Shown here: positions 1,329-37,792 of the stretch, one piece after another
Position numbering within the stretch: position 1 is the first letter of the stretch
Layout: every line of letters begins with the position of its first letter
From: a virus
Lineage: Duplodnaviria > Caudoviricetes
Virus record (IMG/VR): IMGVR_UViG_3300049455_000029
Location: 1-41,204 of that record
DNA: 41,204 nucleotides
Direction: 5' to 3' (one strand)
The notes under the pieces: model-generated
What the model saw: the letters and a program-made list of their open reading frames with translations, nothing else
The model's database searches: none
Told to the model about the DNA's origin: nothing
Made by a program: the position numbers and the translations under genes

Positions 1329-1356
1329 ATCCGCCGACACGGAAGGGAGAAGAAAG

Positions 1357-5408: not shown

Positions 5409-5412
5409 TCCA

Positions 5413-5486: not shown

Positions 5487-5493
5487 GGCACTG

Positions 5494-6024: not shown

Positions 6025-6091
6025 CAGTCACCGCATAGGCCCCCGGTCACGGGCTCGCCCATAGCGGTCCCTGACCAAAGGAGGCAGCACA

Positions 6092-7045: not shown

Positions 7046-7055
7046 GGACTCCCAG

Positions 7056-7981: not shown

Positions 7982-7991
7982 GAGGCAAGCG

Positions 7992-9994: not shown

Positions 9995-10371
9995 TGGCAC
10001 CGACGATCGAGATCGTCAACCTCGGGGAATTCACGGCCGCCGTCCGCAGGTCCGTCTCCGGCGTGGACGCCGCGCTGCACAAGGGGCTTGAGGCGGCAGG
10101 CAAACCGGTCCTGTCCCGGGCGCAGGAGCTGTCGCCCTCCCGCCAGGTGGCAGCCGCCGGGCGGCTGCAGGTCTCGGGGACTGAGGGTCAGATTGTCTTC
10201 GAGAAGGATTGGGCCGAGGCGGCGGAGTGGTCGCAGAAGCCGGGCTGGATGGCCCACGGGGCACCCGGCCGCTACGGGCACCGGGCGCTGCGTGAGAAGG
10301 GGGCCGAGGTCGACAAGCTCGTTGACCAGCAGATGGCGGAGATCGTGACCATGTACGGGTGGTTCGGCTGA
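9994..10371 (+). CDS. HK97 gp10-like tail component
   Basis: IEIVNLGEFTAAVRR..AGKPVLSRAQELSP..GRYGHRAL pattern; coupled on both sides. Confidence 0.6.
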   Translation: MAPTIEIVNLGEFTAAVRRSVSGVDAALHKGLEAAGKPVLSRAQELSPSRQVAAAGRLQVSGTEGQIVFEKDWAEAAEWSQKPGWMAHGAPGRYGHRALREKGAEVDKLVDQQMAEIVTMYGWFG

Positions 10372-12989
10372 TGGCGGGGGCCGTGCGGGCGCTCATCCTC
10401 AAGTACTCGGGCGACGCCACCTCTCTCAAGGCGACAGCCAAGGAGATCGAGGGCGCCCACACCCAGATGGGGAGCAACCTCGGCCAGGTCAGCACCTTCA
10501 TGCAGGGCCAGCTCTCCAAGCTCTCCGGTGCCTTCGGCGTGAACCTGGGCAGCGTCAAGGGCATCGTCGGCGAGGGCGAGACCGCGCTCAAAGGTCTGGC
10601 CGGCGCCGGCGGGGAGGCCGCGGCTGGGGCCGAGTCGGCGGGAGCAGGGATCGCCGGGATCGCCGGGCCGATCGGGATCGGGATCGCAGCCGCCGTCGGC
10701 CTCGCAGTGGGGTTGAAGGGGGCGGCCGACGTTGCGGCCTCCATGGCCGGGGAGATCCGCAAGCTCCAGGCGGTCACCGGCTCGAGCGCCGAGGACGCTT
10801 CCCGGCTGAGGGCCGAGTTCGTCCACTTCGGTATCGACGTCGACACGGGCGGGGCTTCCCTGGTGCGCTTCTCCAAGAACCTCGAGGAGGGGGGGCCGAA
10901 GTTCAAGGCCTGGTTCACCGAGGCGGAGCTGGCCGACATGAAGGGCCAGGACCTGACCAAGGACCTGCCCCTGCTGGCGGAGAAGTACCAGTCGCTCGGC
11001 ACCGCCGTCGAGCGCAACACTTTCCTGCTCGACACCTTCGGCAGGGGCGGGACGGCGCTGCGCCCGATCCTCTCGGCCAACGCGGATGAGATCGTCCGGG
11101 TGGGCAAGGAGGCCGACAAGCTGGGGCTCACCTTCGGCGAGAAGGGTCTTGCCCAGGCCAAGGCCTACACGATGGCGCAGCGGGACATGGGCGAGGCCTT
11201 CAAGGGGATCGAGGTCACCCTCGGGCAGGCCGCGATCCCGGCCATTACCAACTTCCTCCACTGGATCACCACCGGCATCGAGGACCTGCGGGCCATCAAC
11301 GGCTGGATCGAGAGCGTGGACCACGGCCTCGGCGGGCTCGGGACGATCCTGGGCGGGCCGATTGCGTGGGGGATGAAGGCCTGGCACCTCGTGATGGGCG
11401 ACAGCACCAAAGCCGTGGCCGCCACTCGCACCGAGCTGGAGGCCGAGAACCAGGCGCTCGCCGATAACGCCGCGGCAACGCAGAAGGCCGCCCAGGAGGT
11501 GGCGAGCTGGACCACGGCCACCATGAACACCTTCAGCATCGTGCCCACGGTCGTGACCAACATCTCCAACCTGGGGACCCAGACTGCCTCGACGGCGAAG
11601 TCGCAGCGCCAGGCCGCCGACGATCAGGCCCACCTCAACGAGCTGCGGGCCGCCGGCGTGATCAACACGAAGGCGCTCGAATCGGCGGAGAAGGGGATCG
11701 AGACCGCTGCCAAGGGGGCAGAGTCCGCCAGCGTCGCGTACGGCAAGTCCGTCGAGGCCGTGACGGCCCTGCAGAAGAAGGAGGCCGACGCGGCCAAGGC
11801 CCTCGCAGACATCCTGAACGGCCCCGCCCCCGCCGATGCTGCCAAGGCGGTGGAGGACCTCGGCAAGGCCCACGACGACAGCGCTGAGGCGGCTATCAGG
11901 TTCCGGGCAGCCCAGGCTGCCGCTGATACAGCCCAGGCCGACAACACCCTCACGGCCGACCAGCAGGCCCAGGCCCTCATCGACCTCAACCGGGCCAAGT
12001 ACGGGGTGACCGACGCGACGAACGCGGAGGCTGCCGCTGCCAAGGCCCTCTACGACCTGCAGCACGAGGCCGACGCGGGGTCCGCTCCCCGGGTCGCTGC
12101 CGAGCAGGCCCTGCAGAAGGCCCACGAGGACACGACGGACGGGCTGAGGGCCGAGGCCGACGCCCTTCGGGCCGTGACCGACGCGACGAATGCCGAGGCG
12201 GACGCGGCCAAGGCGCTCCAGGTCGCCCAGGCCCCCGACGAGGCACTCGTCAAGGGGATCGCAGCGGCCCAGCGGTCACTCGCCGACGATCTCACCACCG
12301 TGGGGGGCGTGACCAAGGCGGTGACCACCACCTTCGCCGAGTTCAAGGTCCAGATGGACAAGCAGATCACCGACATGCTGGCCTGGGCATCGAACATGCA
12401 GTTCCTCATGGACCACCAGGTGTCGGCGGCCATCCTCGAGCCCCTGGCGGCGCTGGGACCCAAGGCCGGCCCCGAGCTGCAGGCGCTGCGCGACGAGGTA
12501 GTCCTTCACGGAACCGGGGCTATCAACGACCTCGGGAGCCGGCTGACCACGGCGACGGGCCAGGTGACCGACCAGCTCAGCGCGTGGAAGACCTACTGGC
12601 AGCAGAACGGGATAGTGATCCCAGCGACGGTGAAGTTCGACGATGCCACGCTGCAGGCCATGGCCACCGGGGGAGCCATCGGGGGCGCCCACCCGATCCC
12701 GCACCTCGCCCTCGGCGGCCCGGTACCGGGGCCTGTCGGGGTCCCCCGCTGGGCGGTTGTCCACGGCGGCGAGACGGTGTTCACGCCCGGCCAGTTCAGC
12801 GACCTGCTCGCCGGGATGCGGGGCATGCGCACCGCGGGGACAGCGGACATCGCCTCGTCAGGCACGGTCGGGATGGTGGAGCTGCACACGCACCTCTACC
12901 TCGACGGCAAGGAGATCGCCGACAACGTCACCACGCACCAACTCAACAGCGCCCGTCGCAACGGGAACCTCTCGGGAGGGCGCTTCTGA
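10371..12989 (+). CDS. Tape measure protein
   Basis: 872 aa Ala-rich helical ORF after chaperones; internal VTDATNAEA.AAKAL repeats; C-terminal VVHGGETV and LYLDGKEIA motifs. Confidence 0.92.
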   Translation: MAGAVRALILKYSGDATSLKATAKEIEGAHTQMGSNLGQVSTFMQGQLSKLSGAFGVNLGSVKGIVGEGETALKGLAGAGGEAAAGAESAGAGIAGIAGPIGIGIAAAVGLAVGLKGAADVAASMAGEIRKLQAVTGSSAEDASRLRAEFVHFGIDVDTGGASLVRFSKNLEEGGPKFKAWFTEAELADMKGQDLTKDLPLLAEKYQSLGTAVERNTFLLDTFGRGGTALRPILSANADEIVRVGKEADKLGLTFGEKGLAQAKAYTMAQRDMGEAFKGIEVTLGQAAIPAITNFLHWITTGIEDLRAINGWIESVDHGLGGLGTILGGPIAWGMKAWHLVMGDSTKAVAATRTELEAENQALADNAAATQKAAQEVASWTTATMNTFSIVPTVVTNISNLGTQTASTAKSQRQAADDQAHLNELRAAGVINTKALESAEKGIETAAKGAESASVAYGKSVEAVTALQKKEADAAKALADILNGPAPADAAKAVEDLGKAHDDSAEAAIRFRAAQAAADTAQADNTLTADQQAQALIDLNRAKYGVTDATNAEAAAAKALYDLQHEADAGSAPRVAAEQALQKAHEDTTDGLRAEADALRAVTDATNAEADAAKALQVAQAPDEALVKGIAAAQRSLADDLTTVGGVTKAVTTTFAEFKVQMDKQITDMLAWASNMQFLMDHQVSAAILEPLAALGPKAGPELQALRDEVVLHGTGAINDLGSRLTTATGQVTDQLSAWKTYWQQNGIVIPATVKFDDATLQAMATGGAIGGAHPIPHLALGGPVPGPVGVPRWAVVHGGETVFTPGQFSDLLAGMRGMRTAGTADIASSGTVGMVELHTHLYLDGKEIADNVTTHQLNSARRNGNLSGGRF

Positions 12990-14845
12990 TGGCCCTACCC
13001 ACACTGGTTGCAGAGGCAGCATGGACCACGGACCCGCTGGCCATGCCCTCGTGGACCACCGTCCCCAGGTGCAGGACGCTCAAGGTGACAGGCAACCACC
13101 GCTCGGCCGCCCTCGGGCGCTTCGACGCCGGCGTCATCGTTGCCAGCTTCGGCAACCGGGACCGCTCACTGGAGCCGCTGTTCGCTGCCGGGGCCAACTA
13201 CCCGAACGTAAAGCTCCGCAAGAGGGTGAGGTTCCGGGCTGTCGCCCACGGAGGGACCGGGACCACCTACCCCATCGCTGTGGGCTTCGTCGAAAAGGTC
13301 GTCCCCACCTACCCCAAGGACTGGAAGGACGCGGCCAGCACCCTCACCGCGTCGGACGCTTTCAGGCTCTTTGCGGGGGCCCAACTGGTGAATCCCTATC
13401 AGGCTGCCGTGATGAGCGACAACCCTGTGGCCTACTACCGGCTGGCCGAGCCAAGTGGCTCGACGGCGGTCGACTCCAGTGGCAACGCCAACAACGGGAC
13501 CTATCGGGGAGGCGTGACCTTGGGGGCCTCCACCCTCGTCAGCGACGTTTCCGACAAGGCGATCACCATTGCTGGCTGGACCGGTTCCGTCTCTCTGCCT
13601 CCACCGGTGCAGCTCTCGGGAACGGCCGACTGGAGTGTCGAAGGTCTCCTGGCAGTGAACGCCGGGCCGGACGGGTGCACTCTCTTCTTTCAGGGAGTAG
13701 GGGGTGCCAACATTGCCCTGAACGTCAACGCAACCGGGGGGGCGGGGCATGCCTTTGCCTACATCCAGGGCATCGGAACGGGGATCACCAGCCCTTCCGC
13801 GGCTTACGCTGACGGCCTCCCTCATCACTACGTCCTCACCCACACCGCGGCCGGGGTGGTGACGCTCTACGTCGACGGTGCCAGCGTCGGCAGCGCCACG
13901 GGGGGCACTGGGCCGATCGACTCCGTGGCCGCGCCCGCCAGCATCGGAGCCAACGTCGTCGTCCCCAGCCTCACGGGTCCCTATGTGGTCGACGAGGTGG
14001 CGATCTACTCGACCGCCCTCTCACCCACTCAGGTGGCCGCTCACAACGCCGCCCGGACGGCCTGGGTCGGGGATACCTCCGACGCCCGGGTCGCCCACGT
14101 CCTGGACCAGCTCGGCTGGCCCGCCGCCGACCGGGACCTCGATGCCGGTGCCGCTACTCTCACGGACGCCGCTGACCTGGCCGGCCAGAAGGCGTTGGAT
14201 CACCTGCGCCTCGTCGACGCCACCGAGGGCGGGTGCCTGACCATGGCCCGGGACGGCAAGGTCATGCTGCGGAACCGGCACTCGAACCAGAGCGGCCCGG
14301 CGCGCAACACCGTCTCACAGGCAACCTTCGGGGACCAGGGGGGCACGGAGATCGGGTACACGGCTCTGGGCATGGCCTTCGACGACGTCGAGCTGGCCAA
14401 CCGGGTCACGGTCACGCGGCGCAACGGGATCACAGCGGTGGTCTTCGATCAGGCCCAGATCACTGCCTCCGGCACGGTGCAGGACCATGTCGAGAGCTCC
14501 ATCAGCAACTCCGACGTCGACGCCACGGCGCAGGCGCAGTGGCTCTTGGCTCTGCTGAAGAACCCGAACCGGTGGCGCTTCGAGACGATCGTGGTGCCGA
14601 TCACCGATGCCAACCAGGACACCGTCCTGGGGCTCGAGAAGTGGGACCGGGTCACGGCCGCTTTCACGCCCCCACTTTCGGGGGCCCGCATCTCCCAGGC
14701 CGTTCTGATCATCGGCATCGATCACGACGTGACGAAGCCCGGCCAGTGGATCGTGACTTTCCACACAACGGGGACCGACCTTCAGCTCTCGCCGTTCATC
14801 CTCGATACGAGCCTGCTGGACAGCTCGAATGTGCTGGTCTTCTGA
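12989..14845 (+). CDS. Minor tail / tail-tip protein with LamG (ConA-like) domain
   Basis: PVAYYRLAEPSGSTAVDSSGNANNGTY...LYVDG...VDEVAIYSTALSPTQVAAH is LamG-like; first gene after TMP. Confidence 0.82.
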   Translation: MALPTLVAEAAWTTDPLAMPSWTTVPRCRTLKVTGNHRSAALGRFDAGVIVASFGNRDRSLEPLFAAGANYPNVKLRKRVRFRAVAHGGTGTTYPIAVGFVEKVVPTYPKDWKDAASTLTASDAFRLFAGAQLVNPYQAAVMSDNPVAYYRLAEPSGSTAVDSSGNANNGTYRGGVTLGASTLVSDVSDKAITIAGWTGSVSLPPPVQLSGTADWSVEGLLAVNAGPDGCTLFFQGVGGANIALNVNATGGAGHAFAYIQGIGTGITSPSAAYADGLPHHYVLTHTAAGVVTLYVDGASVGSATGGTGPIDSVAAPASIGANVVVPSLTGPYVVDEVAIYSTALSPTQVAAHNAARTAWVGDTSDARVAHVLDQLGWPAADRDLDAGAATLTDAADLAGQKALDHLRLVDATEGGCLTMARDGKVMLRNRHSNQSGPARNTVSQATFGDQGGTEIGYTALGMAFDDVELANRVTVTRRNGITAVVFDQAQITASGTVQDHVESSISNSDVDATAQAQWLLALLKNPNRWRFETIVVPITDANQDTVLGLEKWDRVTAAFTPPLSGARISQAVLIIGIDHDVTKPGQWIVTFHTTGTDLQLSPFILDTSLLDSSNVLVF

Positions 14846-15333
14846 TGGGCTACACCGTCCCCCCGGGCTTCGTCGCCGGAGCTGCGCTGCCGGCGAGCTC
14901 GCTCACGATCCTGGGCAACGACATCGTGGACCTGGATGCCCGCACCCGGCCCTCGAGCGCCGGCGTGACCACCTCCCAAACCACGACCTCGACCTCCTAC
15001 ACCGACCTGGCGACGGTGGGGCCCGCTGTGACCTTGCTCACGGGCACTATGGCCCTCGTGATCGTGACGGCGGAGGTGGATACGACCGGAGCGGGCGTCA
15101 CGCCCCGCATAGGGTTTGCCGTCTCCGGCGCCACGACGGTGGCGGCGACGGATGTCTGGGGGATCAAGGTGGACGCCGGCGCCGCGGCACTCCTTCAGCT
15201 CTCCTTTGCGGTCCTGGTCCAAAATCTCACGCCGGGGACGAACGTCTTCACCGCCAAATACCGGGTGGGCAGCGGGACCGGGACCTTCCTGAACCGCGGA
15301 CTCACCGTGTGGCCAGCCAACAAGCTCTCTTGA
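14845..15333 (+). CDS. Minor tail protein
   Basis: Thr-rich beta protein (TTTSTSYTDLATVGPAVT, LTPGTNVFTAKYR); TGATG coupling. Confidence 0.75.
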   Translation: MGYTVPPGFVAGAALPASSLTILGNDIVDLDARTRPSSAGVTTSQTTTSTSYTDLATVGPAVTLLTGTMALVIVTAEVDTTGAGVTPRIGFAVSGATTVAATDVWGIKVDAGAAALLQLSFAVLVQNLTPGTNVFTAKYRVGSGTGTFLNRGLTVWPANKLS

Positions 15334-15344
15334 TCGGAGGTCCT

Positions 15345-15794
15345 TTGAGCACAGCAGCCAATCCGCCCGGGTCCGGCATCGATCGGCGGGCAGGTCTCCG
15401 CACCGACTTCACCGCCGTCGTGCGAGGTGTCACGGTGCCCGTCGATCCCGTGCAGCTCAAACAGGCGCTCGGTGGTGCGGACGTCTACACGAGCCAGGGA
15501 GACGACGGTTCGACCGTGGTGCTGGCCAACGTCGATCAAGCCGCCCTCGATGCGGCAGTCTCGGCGATGGTTGCCGCGGCTCCCGCTGTAGCAGCTGCGC
15601 AGGCCACGGCCGTCACGAACTACGGCGCTCTTCAGCAGCGCCTCCAGGCGGCCCTGGCCCGCAACGCCACATACCTTGCTCTCTCGTCGCCGGCGATGCC
15701 TGATGTGGTGGGCCAGGTGGCGCTGCTGACGAGGGAGTGCTCGGCCCTCATCCGCAGAGAGCTCAACCTCCTCGACTCGACGGCAGGCACGTGA
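15345..15794 (+). CDS. Hypothetical protein (possible tail accessory or chaperone)
   Basis: SD GGAGG before TTG; coupled to endolysin by TGATG. Confidence 0.7.
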   Translation: MSTAANPPGSGIDRRAGLRTDFTAVVRGVTVPVDPVQLKQALGGADVYTSQGDDGSTVVLANVDQAALDAAVSAMVAAAPAVAAAQATAVTNYGALQQRLQAALARNATYLALSSPAMPDVVGQVALLTRECSALIRRELNLLDSTAGT

Positions 15795-16639
15795 TGGCGG
15801 TCCCCTTCGTCCAGGCGAAGTTCTACACGGTAGTCGGCGGCCGCCGGATCATCTGGTTGGTCCTGCACGACATGCAGGCGCCCAACAAGGGCGGGACCGC
15901 CGCGGCGGTCGCCAACTACTTCGCCACGATGGACGTGCCCCGCCAGAGCGGGGCCTCGGCACACGAGTGCATCGACAACGGCGCTGTCATTCAGTGCGTC
16001 CAGGACGGCGACGTGGCATGGGCGGCGCCCGGTGCCAACTCTCTTGGCTACCACTTCGAGATGACCGGCTACGCAGCCCAGGCGACGAACGAGTGGTTGG
16101 ACCCCTACGGCCACGAGATGCTGTCGATCGCCGCTCAGAGGGTCCGGGCCAAGGCGGACGAGAAGGGGATCCCGATCGTCTTCCGGCGCGCCGCCGACCT
16201 GGCTGCCGGCCTGCCGGGCATCACGACGCATTTCGAGTGCTCGAAGGCCTTCGGGGGCGACCACTGGGATCCGGGCCCCGGATTCCCGATCGACTACTTC
16301 ATCTCCCTCGTCCTTGGCCAACCTGCTCCCGTCCCCCCGTCCACCCCGCGACCGAAAGGACTGGCCGTGTTCGATCCGCCGTTGCAGATCCGTTCCTACC
16401 TGGCCCGACCAGGAATCGGAGCCTGGGGGCTGTTCCCCGACGCCGGCATCGCAGCGATGGGCGCGCCCGACCGGGGCAACGCCCACGGGAAGCCCTACTT
16501 CGCCGGGATGACGGCCGATCACCTGGAGTTCCCGAGCACGCCGCAGGAGCTCAAGGACGCGGCCTCGAAGGGATGGGGGCCGACAGATTGCCACGTCACT
16601 GTGGCCACCGATGGCAAACGCTATGGTCCGGTCTACTGA
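15794..16639 (+). CDS. Endolysin, N-acetylmuramoyl-L-alanine amidase (Amidase_2)
   Basis: LVLHDM, ASAHECID, VAWAAPGANS, FEMTG, ITTH, DHWDPGPGFP motifs; Pro-rich linker and C-terminal domain. Confidence 0.92.
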   Translation: MAVPFVQAKFYTVVGGRRIIWLVLHDMQAPNKGGTAAAVANYFATMDVPRQSGASAHECIDNGAVIQCVQDGDVAWAAPGANSLGYHFEMTGYAAQATNEWLDPYGHEMLSIAAQRVRAKADEKGIPIVFRRAADLAAGLPGITTHFECSKAFGGDHWDPGPGFPIDYFISLVLGQPAPVPPSTPRPKGLAVFDPPLQIRSYLARPGIGAWGLFPDAGIAAMGAPDRGNAHGKPYFAGMTADHLEFPSTPQELKDAASKGWGPTDCHVTVATDGKRYGPVY

Positions 16640-19035: not shown

Positions 19036-19124
19036 TTCGTCCCGCTGGCTGCTGCTGATCAACCTCCACTAAAAGGTCTCGTAAGGCTCCCAACGACTTA
19101 CGCACAATGGGGACAAGTAGATAT

Positions 19125-19200
19125 GCCTCCGAATCCACAAGCTAGGCACAACGTCGACAAGGAGATATATCAACAAGGGGACACGCCTCCGAATCTACAA
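19125..19200. repeat. 16-bp direct repeat GCCTCCGAATCYACAA, period 60 bp
   Basis: Copies at 19125-19140 and 19185-19200 (15/16 identical) in a relatively AT-rich intergenic tract. Confidence 0.8.
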
Positions 19201-19219
19201 TCCGTGTCTCCCGGCATCG

Positions 19220-20104
19220 TCATCCTGAGGCAGGCCCCTCGAGCTTCGAGAGCGCTTCCCGCAGCGCTGCGTCGTTCGGCTGGGTGTAGGTCATGACGTG
19301 GCGGAGGTCGACGTGGCCGAGGATCTCGGCGATCAGGCGAGGATGGACGCCGCGCTCGGCCAGGTGCGTGGCCCCCGTGTGGCGTAGGGCGTAGGGCCGG
19401 CACTTCTCCGGGGGCAGGCCGGCGAGGCGGGCGGCGGCGCTGACCAGCTCCCAGTAGCGGGTGGTGCCCACGGTGATGAGGTAGGCCGACGTCGCCGGAG
19501 TCAGCTCGAGGAGGTTCTCCAGGGCGACGCGGGCCACACCCACGACCGGCACAATGCGGTCGTTGCCGGTCTTCGTATCGGTGATGTAGACGCACGAGCT
19601 GCGGCCGTTGAGGTTGATCTGGGACTTAGCTAAGCGGCAGATCTCGCCCGGGCGCAGGCACAGGCCGTACTGGGCCAGGATCGCCCAGGCGACGTCGTGG
19701 CCGGTCCCCCGCCGGCCGTAGTGGCCGATCCAGATGGCGGTCTGGAACACGGCGAACAGCTCCTCTTCCGTCCACCCCCGCTTTACCTTCTGGCGGCTGA
19801 CCCGCGCCTTGCGGGCCTCCTTCAGAGGGTTGTCGGGCCGGAGGCCGCGGCGCTCCAGGAAGCCGAAGAAGTCGGCGAGAGCTGCCCGGCGCAGCGAGGC
19901 GTGTTGGGGGCGCAGCTCGCCGAGATGGCGATCGACGTCCCGCACGGTGACGTCCAGGGGGTGGCGGCCCATGTCGGCGCAGGCTGCGAAGACCTCGCGC
20001 CGGTACCGCTTGACCGTTGCCGTCCCGAGCCGCCCGGGCACCTCCGCCCACCATCTTCGGTAGAGCTCAAAGGCATCCAAGTGGGCATGCCTCGCATAGA
20101 ACAA
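19220..20104 (-). CDS. int: Tyrosine integrase, short / arm-less (Xer-like size)
   Basis: LRPGEI (R), TKTG (K), YALRH, LGHVD..TY catalytic motifs; 294 aa with no room for an N-terminal arm-binding domain. Confidence 0.9.
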   Translation of the reverse strand: MFYARHAHLDAFELYRRWWAEVPGRLGTATVKRYRREVFAACADMGRHPLDVTVRDVDRHLGELRPQHASLRRAALADFFGFLERRGLRPDNPLKEARKARVSRQKVKRGWTEEELFAVFQTAIWIGHYGRRGTGHDVAWAILAQYGLCLRPGEICRLAKSQINLNGRSSCVYITDTKTGNDRIVPVVGVARVALENLLELTPATSAYLITVGTTRYWELVSAAARLAGLPPEKCRPYALRHTGATHLAERGVHPRLIAEILGHVDLRHVMTYTQPNDAALREALSKLEGPASG

Positions 20105-25215: not shown

Positions 25216-25890
25216 GTGAGCGTCCGACTCATGACGCTCGTGTGGGATATCCCGCTCAGCTGCTCACAGAAACTCGTCCTCTTGAAGCTCGCCGACAACG
25301 CCCACGACGACGGGCTGTCTGCAAGGCCCGGCGTACCCACGATCGCAACGCAATGCGGGCTCTCAATAAGAACGGTCCAATATGCTCTTCGGGACCTCGA
25401 AGAGACTGGTTTAATTGCCGCTACCCAATTTGCAGCCGGTGGCCGAGCATTGGTTACGGAGTACCGCCTCTTCCTAAGAAAGGGTGCAACTGGTGCGCAA
25501 GAAAGGGTGCAACTGGTGCGTGAGAATCCCGAAAAGGGTGCAACTGGTGCGCATAAGGGTGCAACTGGTGCGCTCGCGCGTGTTCCTTATGAACCATCAA
25601 GAACCGTAAGTACAGGGGCTGGCGCCCCCCTTAACGGCAATGAAGAGGACTCCACCCAAAACCTTGTCACCTTTTACGTCGAATCCTGCAACTCGTTTGG
25701 TTGGAATCCGTTGAGCCGATGGCGCAACCAAATTGCTAAACAAATCGCCGAGCTGCGAATCGAGAAGCCCCTGGACATCATTCGGTCGGCACTGAGAATC
25801 GCAGCGAACGAGCGCAAATCCCCGACGGCCCTCCCCCACGTCGTCGCCGACATTGAGGCAGGAAGGAGTAGCAGTGGGAAGAGTGCGTGA
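25216..25890 (+). CDS. Replication initiator (N-terminal HTH_36-like wHTH)
   Basis: KLVLLKLADNAHDDG..PGVPTIATQCGLSIRTVQYALRDLEETGLI; contains internal iterons like lambda O. Confidence 0.85.
   Translation: MSVRLMTLVWDIPLSCSQKLVLLKLADNAHDDGLSARPGVPTIATQCGLSIRTVQYALRDLEETGLIAATQFAAGGRALVTEYRLFLRKGATGAQERVQLVRENPEKGATGAHKGATGALARVPYEPSRTVSTGAGAPLNGNEEDSTQNLVTFYVESCNSFGWNPLSRWRNQIAKQIAELRIEKPLDIIRSALRIAANERKSPTALPHVVADIEAGRSSSGKSA
25480..25572 (+). repeat. Replication origin iterons, 4 x AAGGGTGCAACTGGTGCG
   Basis: Perfect 18-bp copies starting at 25480, 25503, 25534 and 25555 inside the initiator gene, in a lower-GC tract. Confidence 0.88.
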
Positions 25891-30672: not shown

Positions 30673-31437
30673 TCAGACGTCCAGCGGGACCTCGTAGACC
30701 AGGACGTGTCGGTCGGTCGGCAGCGTGAGGACGCGCACCTCCACTGGCTCGTCCTTGGCGTCACGGGCAGTCTGGATAGCGACCAGGACCGGGATCCCCG
30801 CAGCAAGCTGAAGCGCCTCAGCCTCCGCGGCTGTGGGCATCCGGGCGCCGACCTCTTCGGTCGCTCGCACCGCCTCGTGCCCCAGCTCCGCCATGATCCG
30901 GTTCGTCCCCCGCACGATGTCGACCGGCTGCACGATCTCCGTGCCCTCCACCATCCGCGTTGGGAACCACGAGTCCGTTAGCGCCACTGGCCCCCCGTCC
31001 ACGTATTGCACCCGCCGCCGCACGATGACCTCCTCGCCCTCAGCGAGCCCCAGCCGGGCCGCGATGTCATCCGGCGCAGCCAGCAGTTCAATCGTCACGT
31101 CCATCCGCACCGTCCGATGCGGTAGGTCCGTCCGGAGGGCATCGGCCTCGGACGCCTCGCGCCTCGAGCGAGCGTTGATCGTCGAGCGGTTCAACCGCAG
31201 CGGCACGCTTGTCGGATCAACCACGAAGCTCCCCCGCCCCTGACCTGTCTCAACGAGGCCCTCAGAGCGGAGTAGCCCAAGAGCTAGCCGCACCGTGATT
31301 CGGGAGACCTCATGGGTCTCGGTCAGCTCCGCTTCGCTCGGGAGCTTGGTGCCGGGGACCAGCTCCCCGGCCTGGATCTGACGGCGGATCTCATCGGCGA
31401 GCTGTCGGTACAGAGCGTTCGGACCGGTGGGGTTCAT
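30673..31437 (-). CDS. GntR/HutC-family repressor with UTRA domain, KorSA/TraR-like
   Basis: LYRQLADEIRRQI..LPSEAEL..VSRITVRLAL..QGRGSFV wHTH plus ARMPTAAEAEAL UTRA; divergent from a TraB-like operon. Confidence 0.9.
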   Translation of the reverse strand: MNPTGPNALYRQLADEIRRQIQAGELVPGTKLPSEAELTETHEVSRITVRLALGLLRSEGLVETGQGRGSFVVDPTSVPLRLNRSTINARSRREASEADALRTDLPHRTVRMDVTIELLAAPDDIAARLGLAEGEEVIVRRRVQYVDGGPVALTDSWFPTRMVEGTEIVQPVDIVRGTNRIMAELGHEAVRATEEVGARMPTAAEAEALQLAAGIPVLVAIQTARDAKDEPVEVRVLTLPTDRHVLVYEVPLDV

Positions 31438-31453
31438 CGTGGCCTTCCTCTCT

Positions 31454-31499
31454 GCCTGTCATGACAGGCTTGCCAACTTGTTATATGACACGGTACAAT
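31454..31499 (+). promoter_or_regulatory. Divergent kor/tra control region: palindromes plus sigma70-type promoter
   Basis: Perfect 16-bp palindrome GCCTGTCATGACAGGC (31454-31469); TTGCCA-N18-TACAAT (31470-31499) with near-palindrome TGTTATATGACA (31479-31490) in the spacer. Confidence 0.7.
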
Positions 31500-31566
31500 C
31501 GGGCACTTAGTACATCGTGATACATGTCCTAGCTTAGAGCGGGGCGGCCATGTGGGACAAGAGAAC

Positions 31567-31749
31567 ATGAGTACGGTAGAAAGCCTCCTTTCGGCCCTCT
31601 TCGCCCACGGCCCCCTGCCCGTAGCGGCCCTCGTGGTCGCCCTGCTCTGGTGGGCCTGCTCCCGGATCCTCCGCATCGTGCGGGCCGAAAGCCGCAATCC
31701 CCTGTTCGTAGCCCTGGTGCTCTGGCTCTGGTCCAGGCACCGCAGGTAG
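31567..31749 (+). CDS. Small membrane protein
   Basis: Two hydrophobic Trp-rich segments; first gene after the tra promoter. Confidence 0.55.
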   Translation: MSTVESLLSALFAHGPLPVAALVVALLWWACSRILRIVRAESRNPLFVALVLWLWSRHRR

Positions 31750-31770
31750 TTCCGAGAAAGGAGCAACGAG

Positions 31771-32250
31771 ATGCCCAGACGCACCGACGAAGAAGTGCGG
31801 CAGCACCACCAGGTCGCCCACGAGGACCCCGAGGCTTTTGGCGCTGGCCGGATCTTTTGCTCCTGCGGCTGGGCTTCCCCCATCGCCCCCAGCGCCGAGC
31901 GCATGGATGTCCTGGCCCGCCACGTAGAGCACGAGGTGAATGGCGAAGAGTGGTGCTGGGGCGACCAGGAGAAGGCCAGGCGGCGCTACCACGAGATCGA
32001 GAACGGCCGTCTGCGGGTGCCCTACGGCCCGGAGCAGAGCAACATCGGCGCTTTCGTCCAGGACGGCAAGGGCCATCTCTTCGAGGTCGAGGATGAGACG
32101 CCCGACGGCCGCCACGTCGTCATCAGCACCGGCCACGGAACCAGCATGGTCGACCTCGAGCTCGACGACGTCTTCCAGGTCCCCGATGCAGGCCTGGTAG
32201 CCGCGGCCGCCGCCCTCGACCCTGGTATCGACCTCCGGGTGCAGCCGTGA
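31771..32250 (+). CDS. Hypothetical protein
   Basis: SD AAGGAG; HHQ..CSCGW..H motif. Confidence 0.72.
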   Translation: MPRRTDEEVRQHHQVAHEDPEAFGAGRIFCSCGWASPIAPSAERMDVLARHVEHEVNGEEWCWGDQEKARRRYHEIENGRLRVPYGPEQSNIGAFVQDGKGHLFEVEDETPDGRHVVISTGHGTSMVDLELDDVFQVPDAGLVAAAAALDPGIDLRVQP

Positions 32251-32495
32251 GCCCCCTCGCCGCTTCCTGCGACACGGCAAGGACCGTGGCCGAGTGCCTG
32301 AACGCCCGGACCACCCCCACCATGGCCCAGTACGGATCGGACATCCCCGCCGCGGCGGCCCACATGATCGGCGCCTTCCTCGACGGCGGGCCCGCGTACT
32401 GGCTCGCCCTCCTGCTCGTGCTCTGGGTGCTCGGCAAGGTTCTCGGTTTCGCCCTGCTCCTCATCGCTGGCCCCAAAGAAAGGACCCACAGGTGA
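32247..32495 (+). CDS. Small membrane protein (Spd-like position)
   Basis: GTGA coupling; C-terminal TM segment. Confidence 0.62.
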   Translation: MSPLAASCDTARTVAECLNARTTPTMAQYGSDIPAAAAHMIGAFLDGGPAYWLALLLVLWVLGKVLGFALLLIAGPKERTHR

Positions 32496-32716
32496 AAACC
32501 TTCGTCAAGGCTCTCGTTGCTCTCTGTTTCGTTGGATGGGCGGCCCACAACCCCGCCCAGGTCCAGGCCGACGTTGGCCGCGTCATGTCCGCCGGCCAGG
32601 CACTCGTGAGCGCCGGGATGAACGCTGCAGGCTCCGCTGTCTCCGGCGTCAGCGGCGGCACGGGCGTCGCCCCCGCTCCCGCGGCCCCCGTGCCCGCCCC
32701 CACCTCGGCTCCCTGA
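32492..32716 (+). CDS. Small membrane or secreted protein (Spd-like position)
   Basis: SD AAGGA; MKTFVKALVALCFVGWAAHNPA; directly upstream of the FtsK gene. Confidence 0.65.
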   Translation: MKTFVKALVALCFVGWAAHNPAQVQADVGRVMSAGQALVSAGMNAAGSAVSGVSGGTGVAPAPAAPVPAPTSAP

Positions 32717-32717
32717 C

Positions 32718-34787
32718 ATGGCCTCCCGCCTGCTCACCTTCCGGGGCCGTGGGATCACCACCCACACCGATGCCCCTGCCCCCGTGGCCCCGCCGGAGCC
32801 CCCCAAGCCCCGCCCGGCCCACCGCCCGATCCTGCCCCCCTGGCTCCGTCAGCGGGCCGAGCTGCGCAACGCCACCCACTGGGCAGTCCTGCACGTGGCC
32901 CACCTGGGGGCCTTTCACGGCCTGCGCCTCCCCAAGTACGCCCTGCGCCTCGCCGTCTACAGTCCCCGCGGGGCGTTCCGGGCTCTCGGCTCGGGCGCCC
33001 GCTGGCTGTTCGATGCCGACGGCCTCACGGTCCAGCGCCACGCAATCACGTCGCTCGCAGGCTCCGTCATGGGCCACGAGCGCAGCGGCCACGTGGCTCA
33101 GTACCGCTCGCTCTCCAAGGAGCACTCCCACCGGGTCCGGGGCCGCCTGTTCGTCGTCGCCATCCTCGTCGTCTTCGGTCTCCCCGCCCTCGCGGCTCTG
33201 AGCCCCCGTATCCCCGCCCTCGCCGCCGTCGTGGCCGTGGGCCTGCTCGGCTGGCACGGCCGGCGCAAGGATCGCCCCATCGTCGACCAGGGCACCATCG
33301 ATGCACCGGGGGCCCGCCCCATCACCCCCGACATGGTCGTCGCCGCGTTCAGCGCCGCAGGGCTCTGCAAGGACACGGACCCGATCACCTTCGCTGCCCC
33401 CGGCGTCGCACGTGATGGAAAGGGCTTCGCCGCCCGGGTCTTCCTGCCCATCGGCACGACGACCTCGAAAGCCGTCGACAAGACTCAGCAGATCGCCTCG
33501 GGCCTCGACGTAAAGCGCGCCCAGGTCTTCCTCGGCCCGTGGGCTGCCGACGGCTCCGAGCGCCGGGTGCAGCTCTGGGTGGCCGATACCGACCCCTACG
33601 CGGCGAAGACGCCCATCACCCCCCTCGCCGCAATCGACACCCTGGACTTCTGGAAGGGGTTCCCTTTCGGGCTCACCGCCAGGGGCCGAGCCGTCAACCT
33701 CTCGCTCGTTTGGTCCTCCCTCCTGGTGGGGGCCATCCCGAGAATGGGAAAGACCAACGTCGCCCGCCTGGTCGGCGCTGCGGCTGCCCTCGACCCTTAC
33801 GTCAAGCTCATCGTCGCCGACGGCAAGGGCGGCAAGGACTGGTCCGCCTTCGCAGACGTCGCCGACTGGTACGGCTCGGGAATCCGCGACGGCGTGGTCG
33901 AATCCTTCGCTCGCACGCTCAAGGGCCTTGTTGACGAGATGGAGCGCCGCTACACCGCCCTCAACAAGCTCCCGGACGACCGGTGCCCCGACGGCAAGGT
34001 CACCCCGTCCATCTGCCGGGACCGCCGGCTCAACATGCCGCTCGTGGTCGTCATCGTCGATGAGATCCAGCGCCTCCTGGAGCACAAGGAGCTGGGTGAC
34101 ACGATCCTCGAGCTGCTGGTTGACCTGGCCAAGACCGGGCCGGCGGCCGGCATCATGCTCGTCCTCGCCACGCAGAAGCCCGACGCACAGACCCTGCCCG
34201 ACGACCTCCGGGGCCAGATCGGCACCCGCTTCGCCCTCCGGGTCATGACCTACCAGGCCAGCGACACCATCCTCGGCGCCGGCTCCTACTCCGCCGGCCT
34301 CGATGCCTCCAAGATCGAAGAGCAGCACCTGGGCGTCGGTATCCTCCGGGGCGCCGGCGACGAGGGCAGTGCCGGCAGCGCCGGTCAGACGGTCCGCACC
34401 CACATCTGCGACATCCCGACGCTCCGCAAGATCGTCGCCCGCGGCCGGGAGTTGCGCATCAAGGCGGGGACCCTGACCGGCATGGCCGCCGGCGAGGACG
34501 TCATCGAAAACGAACCGCCCCGCAAGCTGCTCGACGACGTCCGGGAGATCTTCGCCGTCGGCGAGTCGAAGCTCTGGTCCGAGACCATCGCCTCCCGTCT
34601 CGCCGGCCGCTGGCCCGACGCCTACGACGGCTGGACTGCCGCCGACGTCGGCTCCCAGCTTGGCCGCCTCGGTATCAGGACCGGCCAGGTCTGGGCCACC
34701 ACCCCCGACGGCACCGGTGCCAACCGCAAGGGCGTGACCTTGGAGGGCCTGGCCGACCTCCAGGACGCTCCGACGGGTGCCAAGTGA
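32718..34787 (+). CDS. FtsK/SpoIIIE-family DNA translocase, TraB/TraSA-like
   Basis: N-terminal TM pair; Walker A GAIPRMGKT, DGKG, Walker B VVIVDEIQ, LATQKP, RFALRV; C-terminal wHTH-like LWSETIASRL..YDGW..NRKGV. Confidence 0.9.
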   Translation: MASRLLTFRGRGITTHTDAPAPVAPPEPPKPRPAHRPILPPWLRQRAELRNATHWAVLHVAHLGAFHGLRLPKYALRLAVYSPRGAFRALGSGARWLFDADGLTVQRHAITSLAGSVMGHERSGHVAQYRSLSKEHSHRVRGRLFVVAILVVFGLPALAALSPRIPALAAVVAVGLLGWHGRRKDRPIVDQGTIDAPGARPITPDMVVAAFSAAGLCKDTDPITFAAPGVARDGKGFAARVFLPIGTTTSKAVDKTQQIASGLDVKRAQVFLGPWAADGSERRVQLWVADTDPYAAKTPITPLAAIDTLDFWKGFPFGLTARGRAVNLSLVWSSLLVGAIPRMGKTNVARLVGAAAALDPYVKLIVADGKGGKDWSAFADVADWYGSGIRDGVVESFARTLKGLVDEMERRYTALNKLPDDRCPDGKVTPSICRDRRLNMPLVVVIVDEIQRLLEHKELGDTILELLVDLAKTGPAAGIMLVLATQKPDAQTLPDDLRGQIGTRFALRVMTYQASDTILGAGSYSAGLDASKIEEQHLGVGILRGAGDEGSAGSAGQTVRTHICDIPTLRKIVARGRELRIKAGTLTGMAAGEDVIENEPPRKLLDDVREIFAVGESKLWSETIASRLAGRWPDAYDGWTAADVGSQLGRLGIRTGQVWATTPDGTGANRKGVTLEGLADLQDAPTGAK

Positions 34788-34895
34788 ACCGCCACGGCCT
34801 CGTGGGCGTCGAGGAGCAAGCCATGCGCCGACAGGCCGGGCTGGCCTGGATTGCCGCCCAACCATCCGGGCCCCCGGTGCGGCTCGCACCCGGCA

Positions 34896-35093
34896 CTAGC
34901 TCCCCTTGGGCGTATCAAAGGGCCGCTAGAGACGGGGATAGACCTAGACCCCCTCAAGGATAGACCTATCCCCCCTCAACCTCGCCCAAAGGTCTTCTGA
35001 CCTGCGCTCTAGCCCCCTATCCGCCCCCACGACGCTCACTGTCCATTGTGCCTAGAGCCCCACCCCGCTGTCCCGACTCACAACCGCCGCTAG
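34896..35093 (+). repeat. clt-like repeat cluster downstream of the TraB-like gene
   Basis: Tandem GGATAGACCTAGACCCCCTCAA / GGATAGACCTATCCCCCTCAA (34936-34978); six CTAG tetramers in 200 bp; recurrent CTA(G/T)..CCCC units in one orientation. Confidence 0.65.
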
Positions 35094-35185
35094 AGCAGCC
35101 CCCGAGACCGGCGCCGACCGCTGGAGGAGTGGCCCGGAGCGATGCAGCGCCCCACCCGAGACTCACCGACTGGGAGGTAAAGCCC

Positions 35186-35302
35186 GTGACCGAACTGATT
35201 GGGTTCACGCTCGGATTCCTCGCCGCCTGGTACTCCGGCAGGCCCACGGGCCGGCTGGTTGCCCGGCGCTGGGGATTCCCGGTACCGGATGAGAGCCGAT
35301 GA
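35186..35302 (+). CDS. Small membrane peptide
   Basis: SD GGGAGG; MTELIGFTLGFLAAWY; ATGA overlap with next gene. Confidence 0.58.
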   Translation: MTELIGFTLGFLAAWYSGRPTGRLVARRWGFPVPDESR

Positions 35303-35670
35303 TCCGCCGCCTCGTGGCCCTTACCTTGCTCGCCACCTGCGTCCTGGCGATTCCCGCCACCGCGTGGGCCTGGCCGCAGGGCTACAGGACCGAAATCAGC
35401 ATCTCGCCAGGGGGGCACTTCACCGCGGTCCTCCACTCGCCGACCGCTCAGGACCTCTACGTCTGGATGCGGCCGCCACACTTCGGCGAGCCGGAGAACA
35501 GCCCGCGATGGGAATACCTTGCCGCGCACTGCAGCGGCTCGACCGCCTGCCACCTGTCCGGCACCTACACGGTTGACTGCACGAAGGTCTTCATCCAGTT
35601 CCAGGCGTTCAAAGGCCCGGTCTGGCCCGCTCGCCACGAGAACTTCGCCGTGGCCGAGTCGCTATGTTGA
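35299..35670 (+). CDS. Secreted protein
   Basis: Sec signal MIRRLVALTLLATCVLAIPATAWA; four Cys in mature part. Confidence 0.72.
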   Translation: MIRRLVALTLLATCVLAIPATAWAWPQGYRTEISISPGGHFTAVLHSPTAQDLYVWMRPPHFGEPENSPRWEYLAAHCSGSTACHLSGTYTVDCTKVFIQFQAFKGPVWPARHENFAVAESLC

Positions 35671-36101
35671 TCCGCCGTCTTGCCGCGGGAGTCGTCCTGG
35701 CAGGCCTGCTGGCCCTGCCCGCCGGCGCAGCGCCGAGAGCGCTGCCTCCTTCGCAGCAGTCCACCTGCACCGCCGACATCCGGGTCTGCTTCAACGAGTA
35801 CGCCTCGACCCCCGGCCCCCAGGGCGTCATCCGGGCCAATACCGACGACTCAACCCCGACGTTCGGCCACAGCGCCTTCCGCCGGGCGATCCTGATCTTC
35901 CACCTGGTGCACGACCCCGACACCGGCCGCTGGGTCCCCTACCTTGTGGCGCAGGCCCCCTGGTGCGTGGCGGTGAGCAACTGCTACGTCGAGTGGCACA
36001 CCGACGATCCGCTCGCCATGCAGCTCACGCTCTGGTGGGGCGCCACCTTCGACAACAACAATCACGTCCTCGTTGCCCGCGTGGGCTACCCGTCGGCGTG
36101 A
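35664..36101 (+). CDS. Secreted protein
   Basis: Signal MLIRRLAAGVVLAGLLALPAGA; four Cys; overlaps previous gene. Confidence 0.72.
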   Translation: MLIRRLAAGVVLAGLLALPAGAAPRALPPSQQSTCTADIRVCFNEYASTPGPQGVIRANTDDSTPTFGHSAFRRAILIFHLVHDPDTGRWVPYLVAQAPWCVAVSNCYVEWHTDDPLAMQLTLWWGATFDNNNHVLVARVGYPSA

Positions 36102-36165
36102 CGGTGCTTTGTGTGTGCGGCAGGCCTGCCAGCTCGGAAGCCTGCCGCGCCCAGAGGCGCATCTG

Positions 36166-36450
36166 ATGGGTTTCCTCTACCTGCTCGGCGAGATGCTCTT
36201 CTACACGCTGCGGCCGCTGGCCGGGATCGCTGCGATAGCGGCGGGTGTCGTGATAGGGATGGTCGCCGCCCTGTTCCTGTATGACCGGATGACCGGCCGC
36301 GTGGTTGAGCGTGCGGACCAGGACGTGACGCAGGCCGAGGTCGGCCCCAGCAACGTCTACTACCTCACGCCCGAGCTCGAGGCCGCCCACCGGGACCGCC
36401 GTGTGATGCGGTTGCTGGACCGGTCCTGTCAGGCTGATGCTCACTTTTGA
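36166..36450 (+). CDS. Membrane protein
   Basis: TM LAGIAAIAAGVVIGMVAALFLY. Confidence 0.62.
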   Translation: MGFLYLLGEMLFYTLRPLAGIAAIAAGVVIGMVAALFLYDRMTGRVVERADQDVTQAEVGPSNVYYLTPELEAAHRDRRVMRLLDRSCQADAHF

Positions 36451-36470
36451 TAATGAAGACTTATCACAAG
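36444..36470. other. lox/dif-like tyrosine-recombinase site
   Basis: CTTTTGATAA-TGAAGAC-TTATCACAAG: 10-bp inverted arms (9/10) around an asymmetric 7-bp spacer, AT-rich, about 270 bp upstream of a Cre-like recombinase. Confidence 0.7.
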
Positions 36471-36488
36471 ACCACAGGAGGTAGGAGC

Positions 36489-36737
36489 ATGACAGAAACC
36501 GAGGCCGCCGAGATTCAAGGACTCAAGGAAGAGGCCGGCGGTTGGAAGGTCGCTCACGATATGTGCGAAGAACGCAGGCTTGCCGTTCAGGTCCGTGCCG
36601 ACTGGCTGGAGGCCGAGAACAAGCGTCTACGAGAGGGCATCAGCGGGCTGGCTGAGATCACGAGCGGGGAGATTCACGAGGAATTGGAGGCGCTGCTCAC
36701 CGATCCTTCCCCAGCCCAGCCCGAGGCCGCCGACTGA
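36489..36737 (+). CDS. Coiled-coil hypothetical protein
   Basis: SD GGAGGTAGGAG; LEAENKRLRE heptads; TGATG coupling to recombinase. Confidence 0.7.
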   Translation: MTETEAAEIQGLKEEAGGWKVAHDMCEERRLAVQVRADWLEAENKRLREGISGLAEITSGEIHEELEALLTDPSPAQPEAAD

Positions 36738-37792
36738 TGGGCGACCAGGCTGTAGCCTTGGCCATCCGCCCCCTCGAGGCGGTCGGGGAGGTGGACGAGG
36801 CGGAATCCCGGATCCGGGCCTTCATGGCGGGCGCGAAGGCGGACAGCACCCGGCGGGCCTACCGTGACGACTGGCGACGCTTCGAAGCGTGGTGCGCCGC
36901 CGAAGACCTGTCAGCGTTGCCGGCCACCCCGACGGCCGTCTGCCGTTTCCTCGATCACCTCGTCGTCGAGGGCTATCTTGCTCGCAACGGGGAGCGCCGG
37001 GCCTACAGCGCTTCGACCCTCAGCCGCTTCATGGTCTCGATCAGCGTCGCCCACACCCGGGCCGGCTTCGCCCACACCGACAACCCGATCAAGCACCCGG
37101 CCGTCCAGGAGTGCTGGGAGGGCATCCGGCGCAGCGTCGGCTCCGCTCAGCGCCCGAAGGCGGCTGCCACGACGACGATCATCCGCAGCATGGTCGCCGG
37201 CCTGCCCGACCCGGTGGCCCCCCTGCCCGGCGCCGCTGACCGCCTCCAGCTCGCCGGCCTCCGGGACCGGGCCCTCGTCCTCCTGGGTTTCGCCGGCGGA
37301 TTCCGCCGCAGCGAGCTCGCCGCCCTGGCCGTCGAGGACCTGGAGGACGTCGACGAAGGCATGGACATCCGCATCCGCCGGTCGAAGACCGACCAGGCGG
37401 GCAAGGGCCGCACGGTCCTTGTCTGCTACGCCCCGGACGCCAGGGACTGCCCGGTGCGCGCGCTGAGGGCCTGGCTCGCTGCCGGCGGTATCAGCGAAGG
37501 CCCGGTCTTCCGCAAGATCGACCGCCACGGTCACGTCGGTTCCCGGCCCCTCAGCGGCCAGGCGGTCGCCGACGTCGTGAAGGCCCGGGCGAAGGCCGCG
37601 GGCCGGGATCCATCGAAGTACGCCGGGCACTCCCTGCGCCGCGGCCACGTCACCAGCGCAGCCAAGGCGGGAGCGACCCGTCAGAAGATCAAGGCGCAGA
37701 CCGGCCACCACAGCGACCGCATGGTCGACGCCTACACCGAGGACGCCGCTCGATCGGAAGGCAATTCCTCAGCCGCCATCTGGACGGTCTGA
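36737..37792 (+). CDS. Cre-like tyrosine recombinase (resolvase type)
   Basis: STRRAYRDDWRRFEAWC SAM-like N-domain; RDRALVLLGFAGGFRRSEL, RRSKTDQ, GHSLRRG, QTGH..Y. Confidence 0.92.
   Translation: MGDQAVALAIRPLEAVGEVDEAESRIRAFMAGAKADSTRRAYRDDWRRFEAWCAAEDLSALPATPTAVCRFLDHLVVEGYLARNGERRAYSASTLSRFMVSISVAHTRAGFAHTDNPIKHPAVQECWEGIRRSVGSAQRPKAAATTTIIRSMVAGLPDPVAPLPGAADRLQLAGLRDRALVLLGFAGGFRRSELAALAVEDLEDVDEGMDIRIRRSKTDQAGKGRTVLVCYAPDARDCPVRALRAWLAAGGISEGPVFRKIDRHGHVGSRPLSGQAVADVVKARAKAAGRDPSKYAGHSLRRGHVTSAAKAGATRQKIKAQTGHHSDRMVDAYTEDAARSEGNSSAAIWTV

Follow-up and report, generated by a model that had tools for sequence, protein, structure and literature searches.

A predicted AICE-type DNA-transfer module in the genome of an integrating tailed phage

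Introduction

Tailed phages that combine virion genes with plasmid-type transfer genes have a described precedent in pZL12/phiZL12 (NC_013420), reportedly presented by Zhong et al. in 2010 as a conjugative Streptomyces plasmid-phage. Here we examine IMG/VR record IMGVR_UViG_3300049455_000029, a stretch of 41,204 nucleotides that we call the window throughout. In it, a phage genome carries a cassette (positions 30673 to 37792) with a GntR repressor, small membrane genes, an FtsK/Tra translocase, a repeat element resembling the clt loci of plasmids and a Cre-like recombinase. By analogy with such plasmids and with the integrative and conjugative elements of actinomycetes (AICEs), we think it probable that this AICE/plasmid-type module of a temperate phage pumps the excised circular genome, as double-stranded DNA, into neighbouring cells without virions. 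Spread by contact appears likely because the lineage has kept the pump intact, together with its repressor and a predicted loading site that is conserved.

The genome of pZL12 includes virion genes together with an FtsK-like protein (pZL12.71), a GntR protein (pZL12.80) and a recombinase (pZL12.36), and its transfer is attributed to a major tra gene and adjacent genes (PMC3583192). An earlier reading of the window, made from its letters alone (the sequence-only reading), overstated the novelty of this combination, since pZL12 already has it and cultured phages carry pZL12-related FtsK proteins: the Streptomyces phages Galactica, Hiyaa, Spocter and Keanu and Thermobifida phage P1312 all join a virion genome to such a translocase, with membrane genes upstream of it in Galactica. 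The FtsK proteins of these phages are, however, unrelated at the sequence level to that of the window, and because the pZL12 protein shows no detectable similarity to it either, the window's FtsK gene is an independent capture. The two elements also differ in build: pZL12 spans 90 kb and has parA and parB, whereas the window spans 41 kb and has an integrase, cI/cro and an attP-like region, without par genes. What sets the present case apart is that the lineage integrates, has no par genes, and both retains the module and exchanges its alleles; the concept was already known from pZL12. In the literature searched, outside which most subscription journals fell, we found no report of Tra-mediated transfer of an integrating phage and no transfer test of an FtsK-carrying cultured phage.

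Plasmids of the type of pSVH1 from Streptomyces venezuelae (also pIJ101, pJV1 and pWTY27) have a TraR-Spd-TraB-clt set laid out much as in the window: a divergent GntR gene, small membrane genes, a membrane FtsK protein with a C-terminal DNA-binding domain, repeats right after its gene and, in pSVH1, a CTGACCTGC motif. With a pump that consists of a single protein, plasmids of actinomycetes move double-stranded DNA from cell to cell. The clt loci are described as repeat clusters beside tra that are bound by a winged helix-turn-helix (PMC3583192, PMC4447253), and in pIJ101, according to the second of these sources, TraB and TraR suffice for transfer. The pSVH1 repeats are 8-bp direct repeats, whereas those of the window are CTAG-based and palindromic; the window also has no SpdB2 homologue, and its cassette is carried by a tailed phage. 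AICEs (pSAM2, pMEA100/300, SLP1) resemble the window in their translocase, whose subfamily lies mostly upstream of a Prim-Pol/DUF3987/DUF3631 rep gene and an integrase gene, and a GntR protein (KorSA) is given as typical of them (PMC2440964). They differ in that no AICE Rep, Xis or Int follows tra in the window, as the sequence-only reading had seen, and in that a full set of morphogenesis genes and a replicon of lambda-O type are present in the window.

The transfer module

The central gene of the cassette encodes a 689-residue translocase (32718..34787, plus strand), recognized as a TraB/Tra-type FtsK protein by its match to Pfam FtsK_SpoIIIE, its motifs and its place in a tree. It has an N-terminal membrane segment and intact Walker A and Walker B motifs (near residues 339-346 and 445-451), and is 33% identical to pSVH1 TraB over 386 residues. 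Its C-terminal domain (about residues 595-680) is modelled with a pLDDT of 88.6 as three helices with a helix-turn-helix and beta-wing topology; no FtsK gamma domain is among the fold matches of this tail domain, which excludes nothing.

A quick maximum-likelihood tree of the motor domain, in which long branches meet, was built from 51 of 54 rows; pZL12.71, L173 and L190 were left out for want of a domain match, L170 was mis-cut, and the Tra sequences of pSAM2, pMEA and SLP1 are not in it. The window ATPase stands in this tree among AICE- and phage-borne Tra proteins, with chromosomal FtsK and EccC, and also the pSVH1, pIJ101 and pJV1 proteins, outside (SH-aLRT 93); the grouping apart from chromosomal FtsK and EccC is the outcome that the sequence-only reading had looked for. 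Among 24 non-viral relatives with 9 kb of downstream sequence, some of them near-duplicates, 15 are followed by a Prim-Pol/DUF3987/DUF3631 gene and an integrase gene, four by rep only, three by an integrase only and two by neither, as counted from scans of 56 of 105 long open reading frames (ORFs). Because of the tree position and these downstream contexts, the translocase is classed as an AICE-type Tra.

Divergent from the transfer operon lies the gene of a GntR/UTRA repressor of HutC type (30673..31437, minus strand; Pfam GntR 2e-19, UTRA 3e-27). The protein is Kor/TraR-like, with 34% identity to pSVH1 TraR over 242 residues, 34% to pZL12.80 and 58-59% to the allele found in two sister phage contigs, G001 and L029. 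A predicted operator and sigma70-like promoter of the transfer operon (31454..31499, plus strand) consist of a perfect 16-bp palindrome at 31454-31469, where the GntR protein would bind, and promoter elements at 31470-31499. In both sisters, this intergenic region has been swapped along with the GntR allele. The sisters also have two ORFs after the GntR gene that the window does not (L029:6190-7074 and the matching interval of G001); one encodes a GNAT acetyltransferase, annotated in L029, and the GntR-GNAT order is that of pSVH1. At L003:589-822, L005:9467-9673 and L037:6430-6639, a small divergent ORF common to two phages and one AICE, all with the window's FtsK family, takes the place of GntR, and the ATPases of these three loci form one clade (SH-aLRT 100).

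Four small plus-strand genes separate the repressor from the translocase. The protein of 31552..31749 has a hydrophobic segment, is 58-66% identical in both sisters and is without a Pfam, PHROG or NCBIfam match, so that it can be called Spd-like by position only. A soluble 159-residue protein (31771..32250) is a variable part of the cassette, with no tblastn match in G001 or L029 and 65% identity over 86 residues in a further contig, L030. The small membrane protein of 32247..32495 (transmembrane segment at 55-73) is 81-88% identical in G001, L029 and L030. The small protein of 32492..32716 has a hydrophobic N-terminus and a Pro/Ala tail; it scores under the transmembrane threshold applied, and its N-terminal 38 residues are kept in G001, L029, L030 and L034. 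The small membrane genes reported by the sequence-only reading are these three ORFs with hydrophobic segments, beside the soluble one, and the positions that it gave for the GntR, FtsK and recombinase genes were also correct.

Right after the translocase gene is a clt-like element (34893..35096) made of CTAG/CTAT boxes at fixed spacing, a 22-bp tandem pair (34936-34979) and, at 34997, a CTGACCTGC motif that is also found downstream of pSVH1 traB. Six of the 20 CTAGs in the window sit within about 200 bp at 34896-35090 (Poisson P about 7e-7 after window correction), 8 of 26 cluster likewise in G001, and the boxes align one to one at fixed spacing across eight loci. A repeat cluster had been noticed here from the letters alone; as a CTAG cluster it lies far beyond chance, while its direct repeat amounts to just 2 x 22 bp. 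The presence of the element, scored as at least four CTAGs near the stop codon in the 131 of 140 FtsK loci with enough flank, tracks the type of winged helix: 66 of 75 loci with the window's type have it, as against 1 of 56 with another type, a contrast that is essentially one between two clades and not 131 independent events. CCGTC(A/C)C repeats are found instead at 21 of those 56 loci. Such a match between element and winged helix is what a cognate clt predicts, and the element is predicted to be a conserved loading site for Tra.

A scan with a clt pattern returned 16 loci, of which G001 alone matches window or Tra proteins and the other 15 are chance hits. Reading the element as an RNA structure was rejected, since covariation gives no support (term 0.09) and the pairing follows from the palindrome, which leaves DNA boxes. 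Both 22-bp copies have GATAG where relatives have GCTAG or TCTAG, and the recognition-helix sequence of the window also differs; a concerted change of pump and site is possible.

Integrity, selection and distribution

The cassette is a genuine part of the phage contig. A 23,854-bp contig of run X1 (perhaps the source of the window DNA) spans 17344-41197 at even depth and with no differences; scattered pieces of a relative in run X2 (share 0.08) are not counted as support. Collinearity with the window extends over its full length in sister G001 (42,184 bp; terL 94%, portal 97%, capsid 96%, integrase 93%, Cre-like gene 95%) and from the replication gene (RepO 96%) to the last HNH gene in L029 (16,475 bp), where the Cre-like gene is 94% identical. 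In all three the cassette is flanked by the same genes, and both sisters have the GntR gene, small membrane genes, FtsK gene, repeat element, recombination site and Cre-like gene. The sequence-only reading had asked for coverage and edges to be checked for an assembly chimera, and the one unbroken X1 contig and the same junctions in G001 and L029 rule this out. It had also asked about flanking att repeats as a sign of an independent integrated element. The longest exact repeat between the cassette edges is 13 bp, inside the range of control region pairs (10-16 bp), and no att-like repeat exceeds that range.

No frame of FtsK or GntR is broken in the window, G001 or L029. The dN/dS ratio of the ATPase is 0.084 between G001 and L029 (at dS 0.18), near the 0.09 of TerL between the window and G001; that of the Cre-like gene is 0.09-0.17. 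The ATPase ratio of the window to its sisters (0.8) is uninterpretable at 54% identity and a GC3 of about 0.9, and the ratios leave aside the 36166 gene, whose G001 coordinates took in a stop codon. Purifying selection acts on the module, which is found in intact form throughout the lineage. It is also mosaic: the ATPase is 54% identical to the sisters' allele and the N-terminus 76-80%. In G001, part of the FtsK ATPase region recurs as a 156-bp duplicate just after the stop codon (L002:11459-11614), which is probably a recombination scar. Exchange of the module with plasmid-like elements is probable because L030 holds the small genes, FtsK, the element and the 36166 gene without phage genes. 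In that contig these lie ahead of a 397-residue ORF without a Pfam match, which we read as a rep gene different from that of the window, making L030 plasmid-like; no match to the phage genes of the window was found in L030. The proposal that the cassette was domesticated is therefore softened here: it is lineage-wide and intact, but it also occurs on a plasmid-like contig and its alleles are swapped between sisters.

The module appears to mark a close lineage only. FtsK was found in 0 of 5 records searched from nine other terL loci of more distant phages, one of them a 13-kb fragment that stops short of the region. In INPHARED, no cultured phage has the window's FtsK subfamily, and five weak Ralstonia matches cover 17% of the query; scans of viral contigs with the Cre-like protein and the glycosyltransferase had G001 as sole match. 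Seven further database contigs (39,048; 34,077; 30,749; 16,710; 10,126; 8,253 and 6,409 bp) pair an FtsK with a Cre-like homologue, and four likewise pair an FtsK with an integrase homologue, an indirect pairing by equal size and source.

The wider Tra family of the window occurs in five unrelated phage records: G002, G003 (a provirus), G004 (CheckV 100%, HK97-type head), L035 and pPaSha2. In pPaSha2 of Pseudonocardia alni (L202, CP052773.1), the Tra gene lies between integrase and holin, and its product is 35% identical over 93%. pPaSha2 is circular, 41.9 kb long and deposited as a plasmid, with annotated terminase, portal, HK97 protease, integrase, holin, DUF2637 and FtsK; despite that label it is a prophage, circular and carried by a cultured bacterium.

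The phage genome and its recombinase

The record is 41,204 bp long, of class 'linear' and rated 57% by CheckV, and the window has no terminal repeat. Because G001 joins the last HNH gene to terS within about 400 bp, and so links the two ends of the window, all but a few hundred bases of the genome very probably lie in the window. Hidden Markov model (HMM) scans of 82 ORFs with Pfam and PHROG found the head and packaging genes terS, terL, SPP1-type portal, protease, scaffold, major capsid (HK97 lineage) and head-tail adaptor; the tail and lysis genes tape measure, minor tail and amidase; and the lifestyle genes integrase, cI, xis, RecT, RepO (lambda-O-like) and a helicase-methylase. The terminase, portal, head, tail and amidase genes occupy 918..16639 on the plus strand and are collinear with G001 at 83% DNA identity over 15 kb. 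The likely tail tube gene (8236-9438) has no PHROG match, and no holin was identified among the window ORFs. The complete virion genome of the sequence-only reading is thus upheld for head, tail, lysin, integration and iteron-replication genes, and qualified by the linear record, its CheckV value and the missing holin.

The phage integrase gene with its adjoining attP-like region (19075..20104, minus strand) is intact within the one X1 contig that starts at 17344. The attP-like region itself (19075-19195), kept in G001, has an inverted pair CGTAAG/CTTACG with an 11-nt spacer and repeated GCCTCCGAATC boxes, and adjoins the gene of a short (294 residues) Xer-like integrase; its target site was not found. 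The HMM-assigned lambda-O-like replication initiator (25222..25890, plus strand) contains four internal iterons (25476-25573). Among the 82 ORFs there is no match to ParA or ParB and no AICE-type Rep (RepSA, RepAM, Prim-Pol), which places the window outside the AICE definition of Int, Tra and Rep. It also falls outside the phage-plasmids of P1/pZL12 type, whose mark is a plasmid prophage with partition genes; integrase, cI and attP are present, and there may be a plasmid phase besides integration. By its terminase, portal, capsid, tape measure, lysin, integrase and repressor, this is a temperate member of the Caudoviricetes, known from genes alone. The host is likely an actinobacterial soil bacterium; named relatives are limited to an 'Actinomycetota bacterium' (integrase, 50%) and Acidimicrobiales and Pseudonocardiaceae metagenome-assembled genomes (FtsK, 51-52%).

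The last gene of the cassette (36737..37792, plus strand) encodes a 351-residue protein with a match to Pfam Phage_integrase and intact R-K-H-R-H-Y motifs, which reads as a simple tyrosine recombinase with a full catalytic set; it has His where Cre carries Trp. Its only PDB match is Tre, a Cre variant (E 9e-4), and it is 31% identical to pZL12.36 over 326 residues. The family is widespread on plasmids (2476 records), where the closest relatives are about 40% identical. A single inverted-repeat site (36443..36471), the predicted target, consists of arms of 10-11 bp around a 7-bp spacer and overlaps a promoter-like sequence at 36426-36454. Its arms do not vary among the three phages, and its spacer does so at two positions; the 6-bp-arm pattern occurs once in the window, where shuffled sequences lead one to expect 0.04. 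Two of four plasmids read have a comparable arm-spacer-arm site upstream of the homologue; one of the other two is cut at the record start. A simple tyrosine recombinase with one proximal inverted-repeat site is the arrangement shared with Cre/loxP of P1 and plasmid Cre-like resolvases. The lox-like site that had been proposed is thus single and conserved, but its layout is not that of loxP, which has 34 bp in a 13-8-13 arrangement (PMC4957104). In P1 the job of Cre is given as multimer resolution (PMC8138268), and by analogy this would be the simplest reading of the window enzyme.

Proposed mechanism and alternatives

On the analogy of pSVH1 and pSAM2, the GntR protein would bind boxes at the divergent promoter and silence the operon, because unregulated Tra is toxic. 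The phage integrase would excise the genome, and iteron-driven replication would follow. Membrane-anchored Tra hexamers would use their winged-helix tails to bind the CTAG-box element and would then drive the circle into neighbouring cells or compartments, with the small membrane proteins acting as Spd-like helpers. The Cre-like enzyme would recombine its single site between tandem copies to give monomeric circles, a service to any circular state that need not be tied to transfer. An incoming circle would integrate or turn lytic. Replication and integration, which in an AICE are encoded after tra, would here be provided by the phage. The module recombines with relatives: the repressor along with its operator, and likewise the ATPase domain, occur as swapped alleles. 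So built, the window phage would be an integrating counterpart of pZL12 with a pump from the AICE Tra family.

Several points weigh against transfer between cells. TraB transfer has been proven mainly in mycelial hosts, and a host search with the integrase against 401 sampled Actinomycetota genomes returned nothing at 1e-30. No member of the translocase's subfamily with tested transfer is among the compared sequences. The protein misses the equivalog cut-off of NCBIfam plasmid_TraB (NF041214) with 30.4 bits against 800, and reads as a Tra subfamily other than plasmid_TraB. Winged-helix/LOTUS folds are the best matches of its tail domain, and weak ones (Foldseek E at least 0.02; VIA Z 5.3), the association of element and winged-helix type reduces to two clades, and no SpdB2/DUF2637-like helper was found among the window ORFs. 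The FtsK module is dispensable for the phage type, being absent from the distant relatives searched, and part of its selection signal may stem from periods on plasmids, given the cassette on L030.

The pump might instead work inside one organism only, moving circles across filament cross-walls or into daughter cells as a means of spreading or segregation. With no parA/parB among the 82 ORFs another route of retention would be useful, and in pSVH1, according to PMC4447253, TraB together with Spd proteins also brings about spread within the mycelium. Yet the one machine does both jobs in pSVH1, the usual context of the family is AICEs and an integrating phage needs no partitioning, so we consider this unlikely. 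The cassette could also be a repeatedly replaced plasmid or AICE passenger, kept by exchange with host plasmids or for another benefit, such as Kil-Kor addiction, exclusion of related elements or mobilization of the host chromosome from the integrated prophage. The mosaic alleles, the leftover duplicate in G001 and the cassette on L030 with its different rep gene all fit a passenger, and PMC4447253 describes traB-traR as a Kil-Kor pair. A passenger is nevertheless hard to square with a position that does not vary among the three collinear phage contigs, with FtsK and GntR frames unbroken in all three, with a clt-like element kept in cis or with the same Tra family in five unrelated phage records, and we hold it to be improbable.

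FtsK, the recombinase and a dif-like site might also make up an FtsK-Xer-dif system of the phage's own, whose motor would activate the recombination that resolves or integrates phage DNA; motor, recombinase and arm-spacer-arm site all fall within 3 kb and are found together in the lineage. The motor, however, is not of the chromosomal FtsK type, and the boxes form one palindromic cluster instead of polar sites scattered across the genome. Many plasmids carry the recombinase family, with no FtsK-annotated neighbour in the four regions read, and the other FtsK loci fetched have no match to the window recombinase; such a system is very improbable. A chimera or an independent element inside the phage could be suspected from a metagenomic record whose identity to its sisters falls at the left edge. 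Given the even depth over one unbroken contig, the shared junctions, the lack of a flanking repeat above control and the single recombination site, this idea is largely refuted and retains hardly any credence. Transfer of the excised genome into neighbouring cells is therefore the explanation that we favour, at the strength given above.

Neighbouring genes

Between the repeat element and the recombination site lie the two secreted proteins that had been predicted from the letters, both on the plus strand and both with N-terminal hydrophobic signals. The first (35299..35670) is variable, 95% identical in L029 and without a match in G001; the second (35664..36101) is 91-93% identical in both sisters, and its Atlas neighbours are unnamed actinobacterial secreted proteins (score 0.87; a lead only). 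A small membrane protein (36166..36450, plus strand) appears to travel with the cassette, being encoded downstream of FtsK in L030 and L075 and also present in G001 and L029. Directly upstream of the cassette, a secreted DPBB (RlpA/expansin-like) protein (29905-30354) is 96% identical in L029 and has no protein match in G001.

A fused SNF2-like helicase and DNA methylase (27207-29726, 839 residues) is 34% identical to the allele at the equal place in both sisters and appears to be another swapped module. Before the terminal HNH gene, the interval 39054-40907 holds a 231-residue ORF without a family match and a GT4 glycosyltransferase (91-92% in both sisters), a pair possibly concerned with glycosylation of DNA, capsid or cell surface. 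In the HNH frame (40906-41172; 87-93% in both sisters), no ATG, GTG or TTG start stands upstream of the conserved part, and the frame overlaps the stop codon of the glycosyltransferase gene.

Implications

Phages are taken to depend on a virion and a receptor for their spread. If the transfer reading is right, a prophage pumped to neighbours would cross receptor barriers and spread without lysis, possibly dragging host DNA from the integration site, which would blur the line between phages and ICEs in soil actinobacteria. pZL12 shows that this can exist, and the window indicates an extension to small integrating phages, kept under selection across a lineage. pPaSha2, in a cultured Pseudonocardia alni, offers the best system for testing the window's Tra family, and the Cre-like enzyme with its predicted site is a candidate recombinase tool.

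More tentatively, and with rather more doubt than confidence, we raise the idea that one AICE Tra-clt family, present in five unrelated phage records, has been acquired again and again by integrating phages of actinobacteria, which would use it regularly as a third way to spread. In that case conjugative temperate phages would be a widespread and overlooked class, and pZL12 would no longer stand alone. On such a route, the excised genome would move by contact, receptors would be bypassed and the donor would not be killed, while repressor/operator and pump alleles would be swapped like immunity types.

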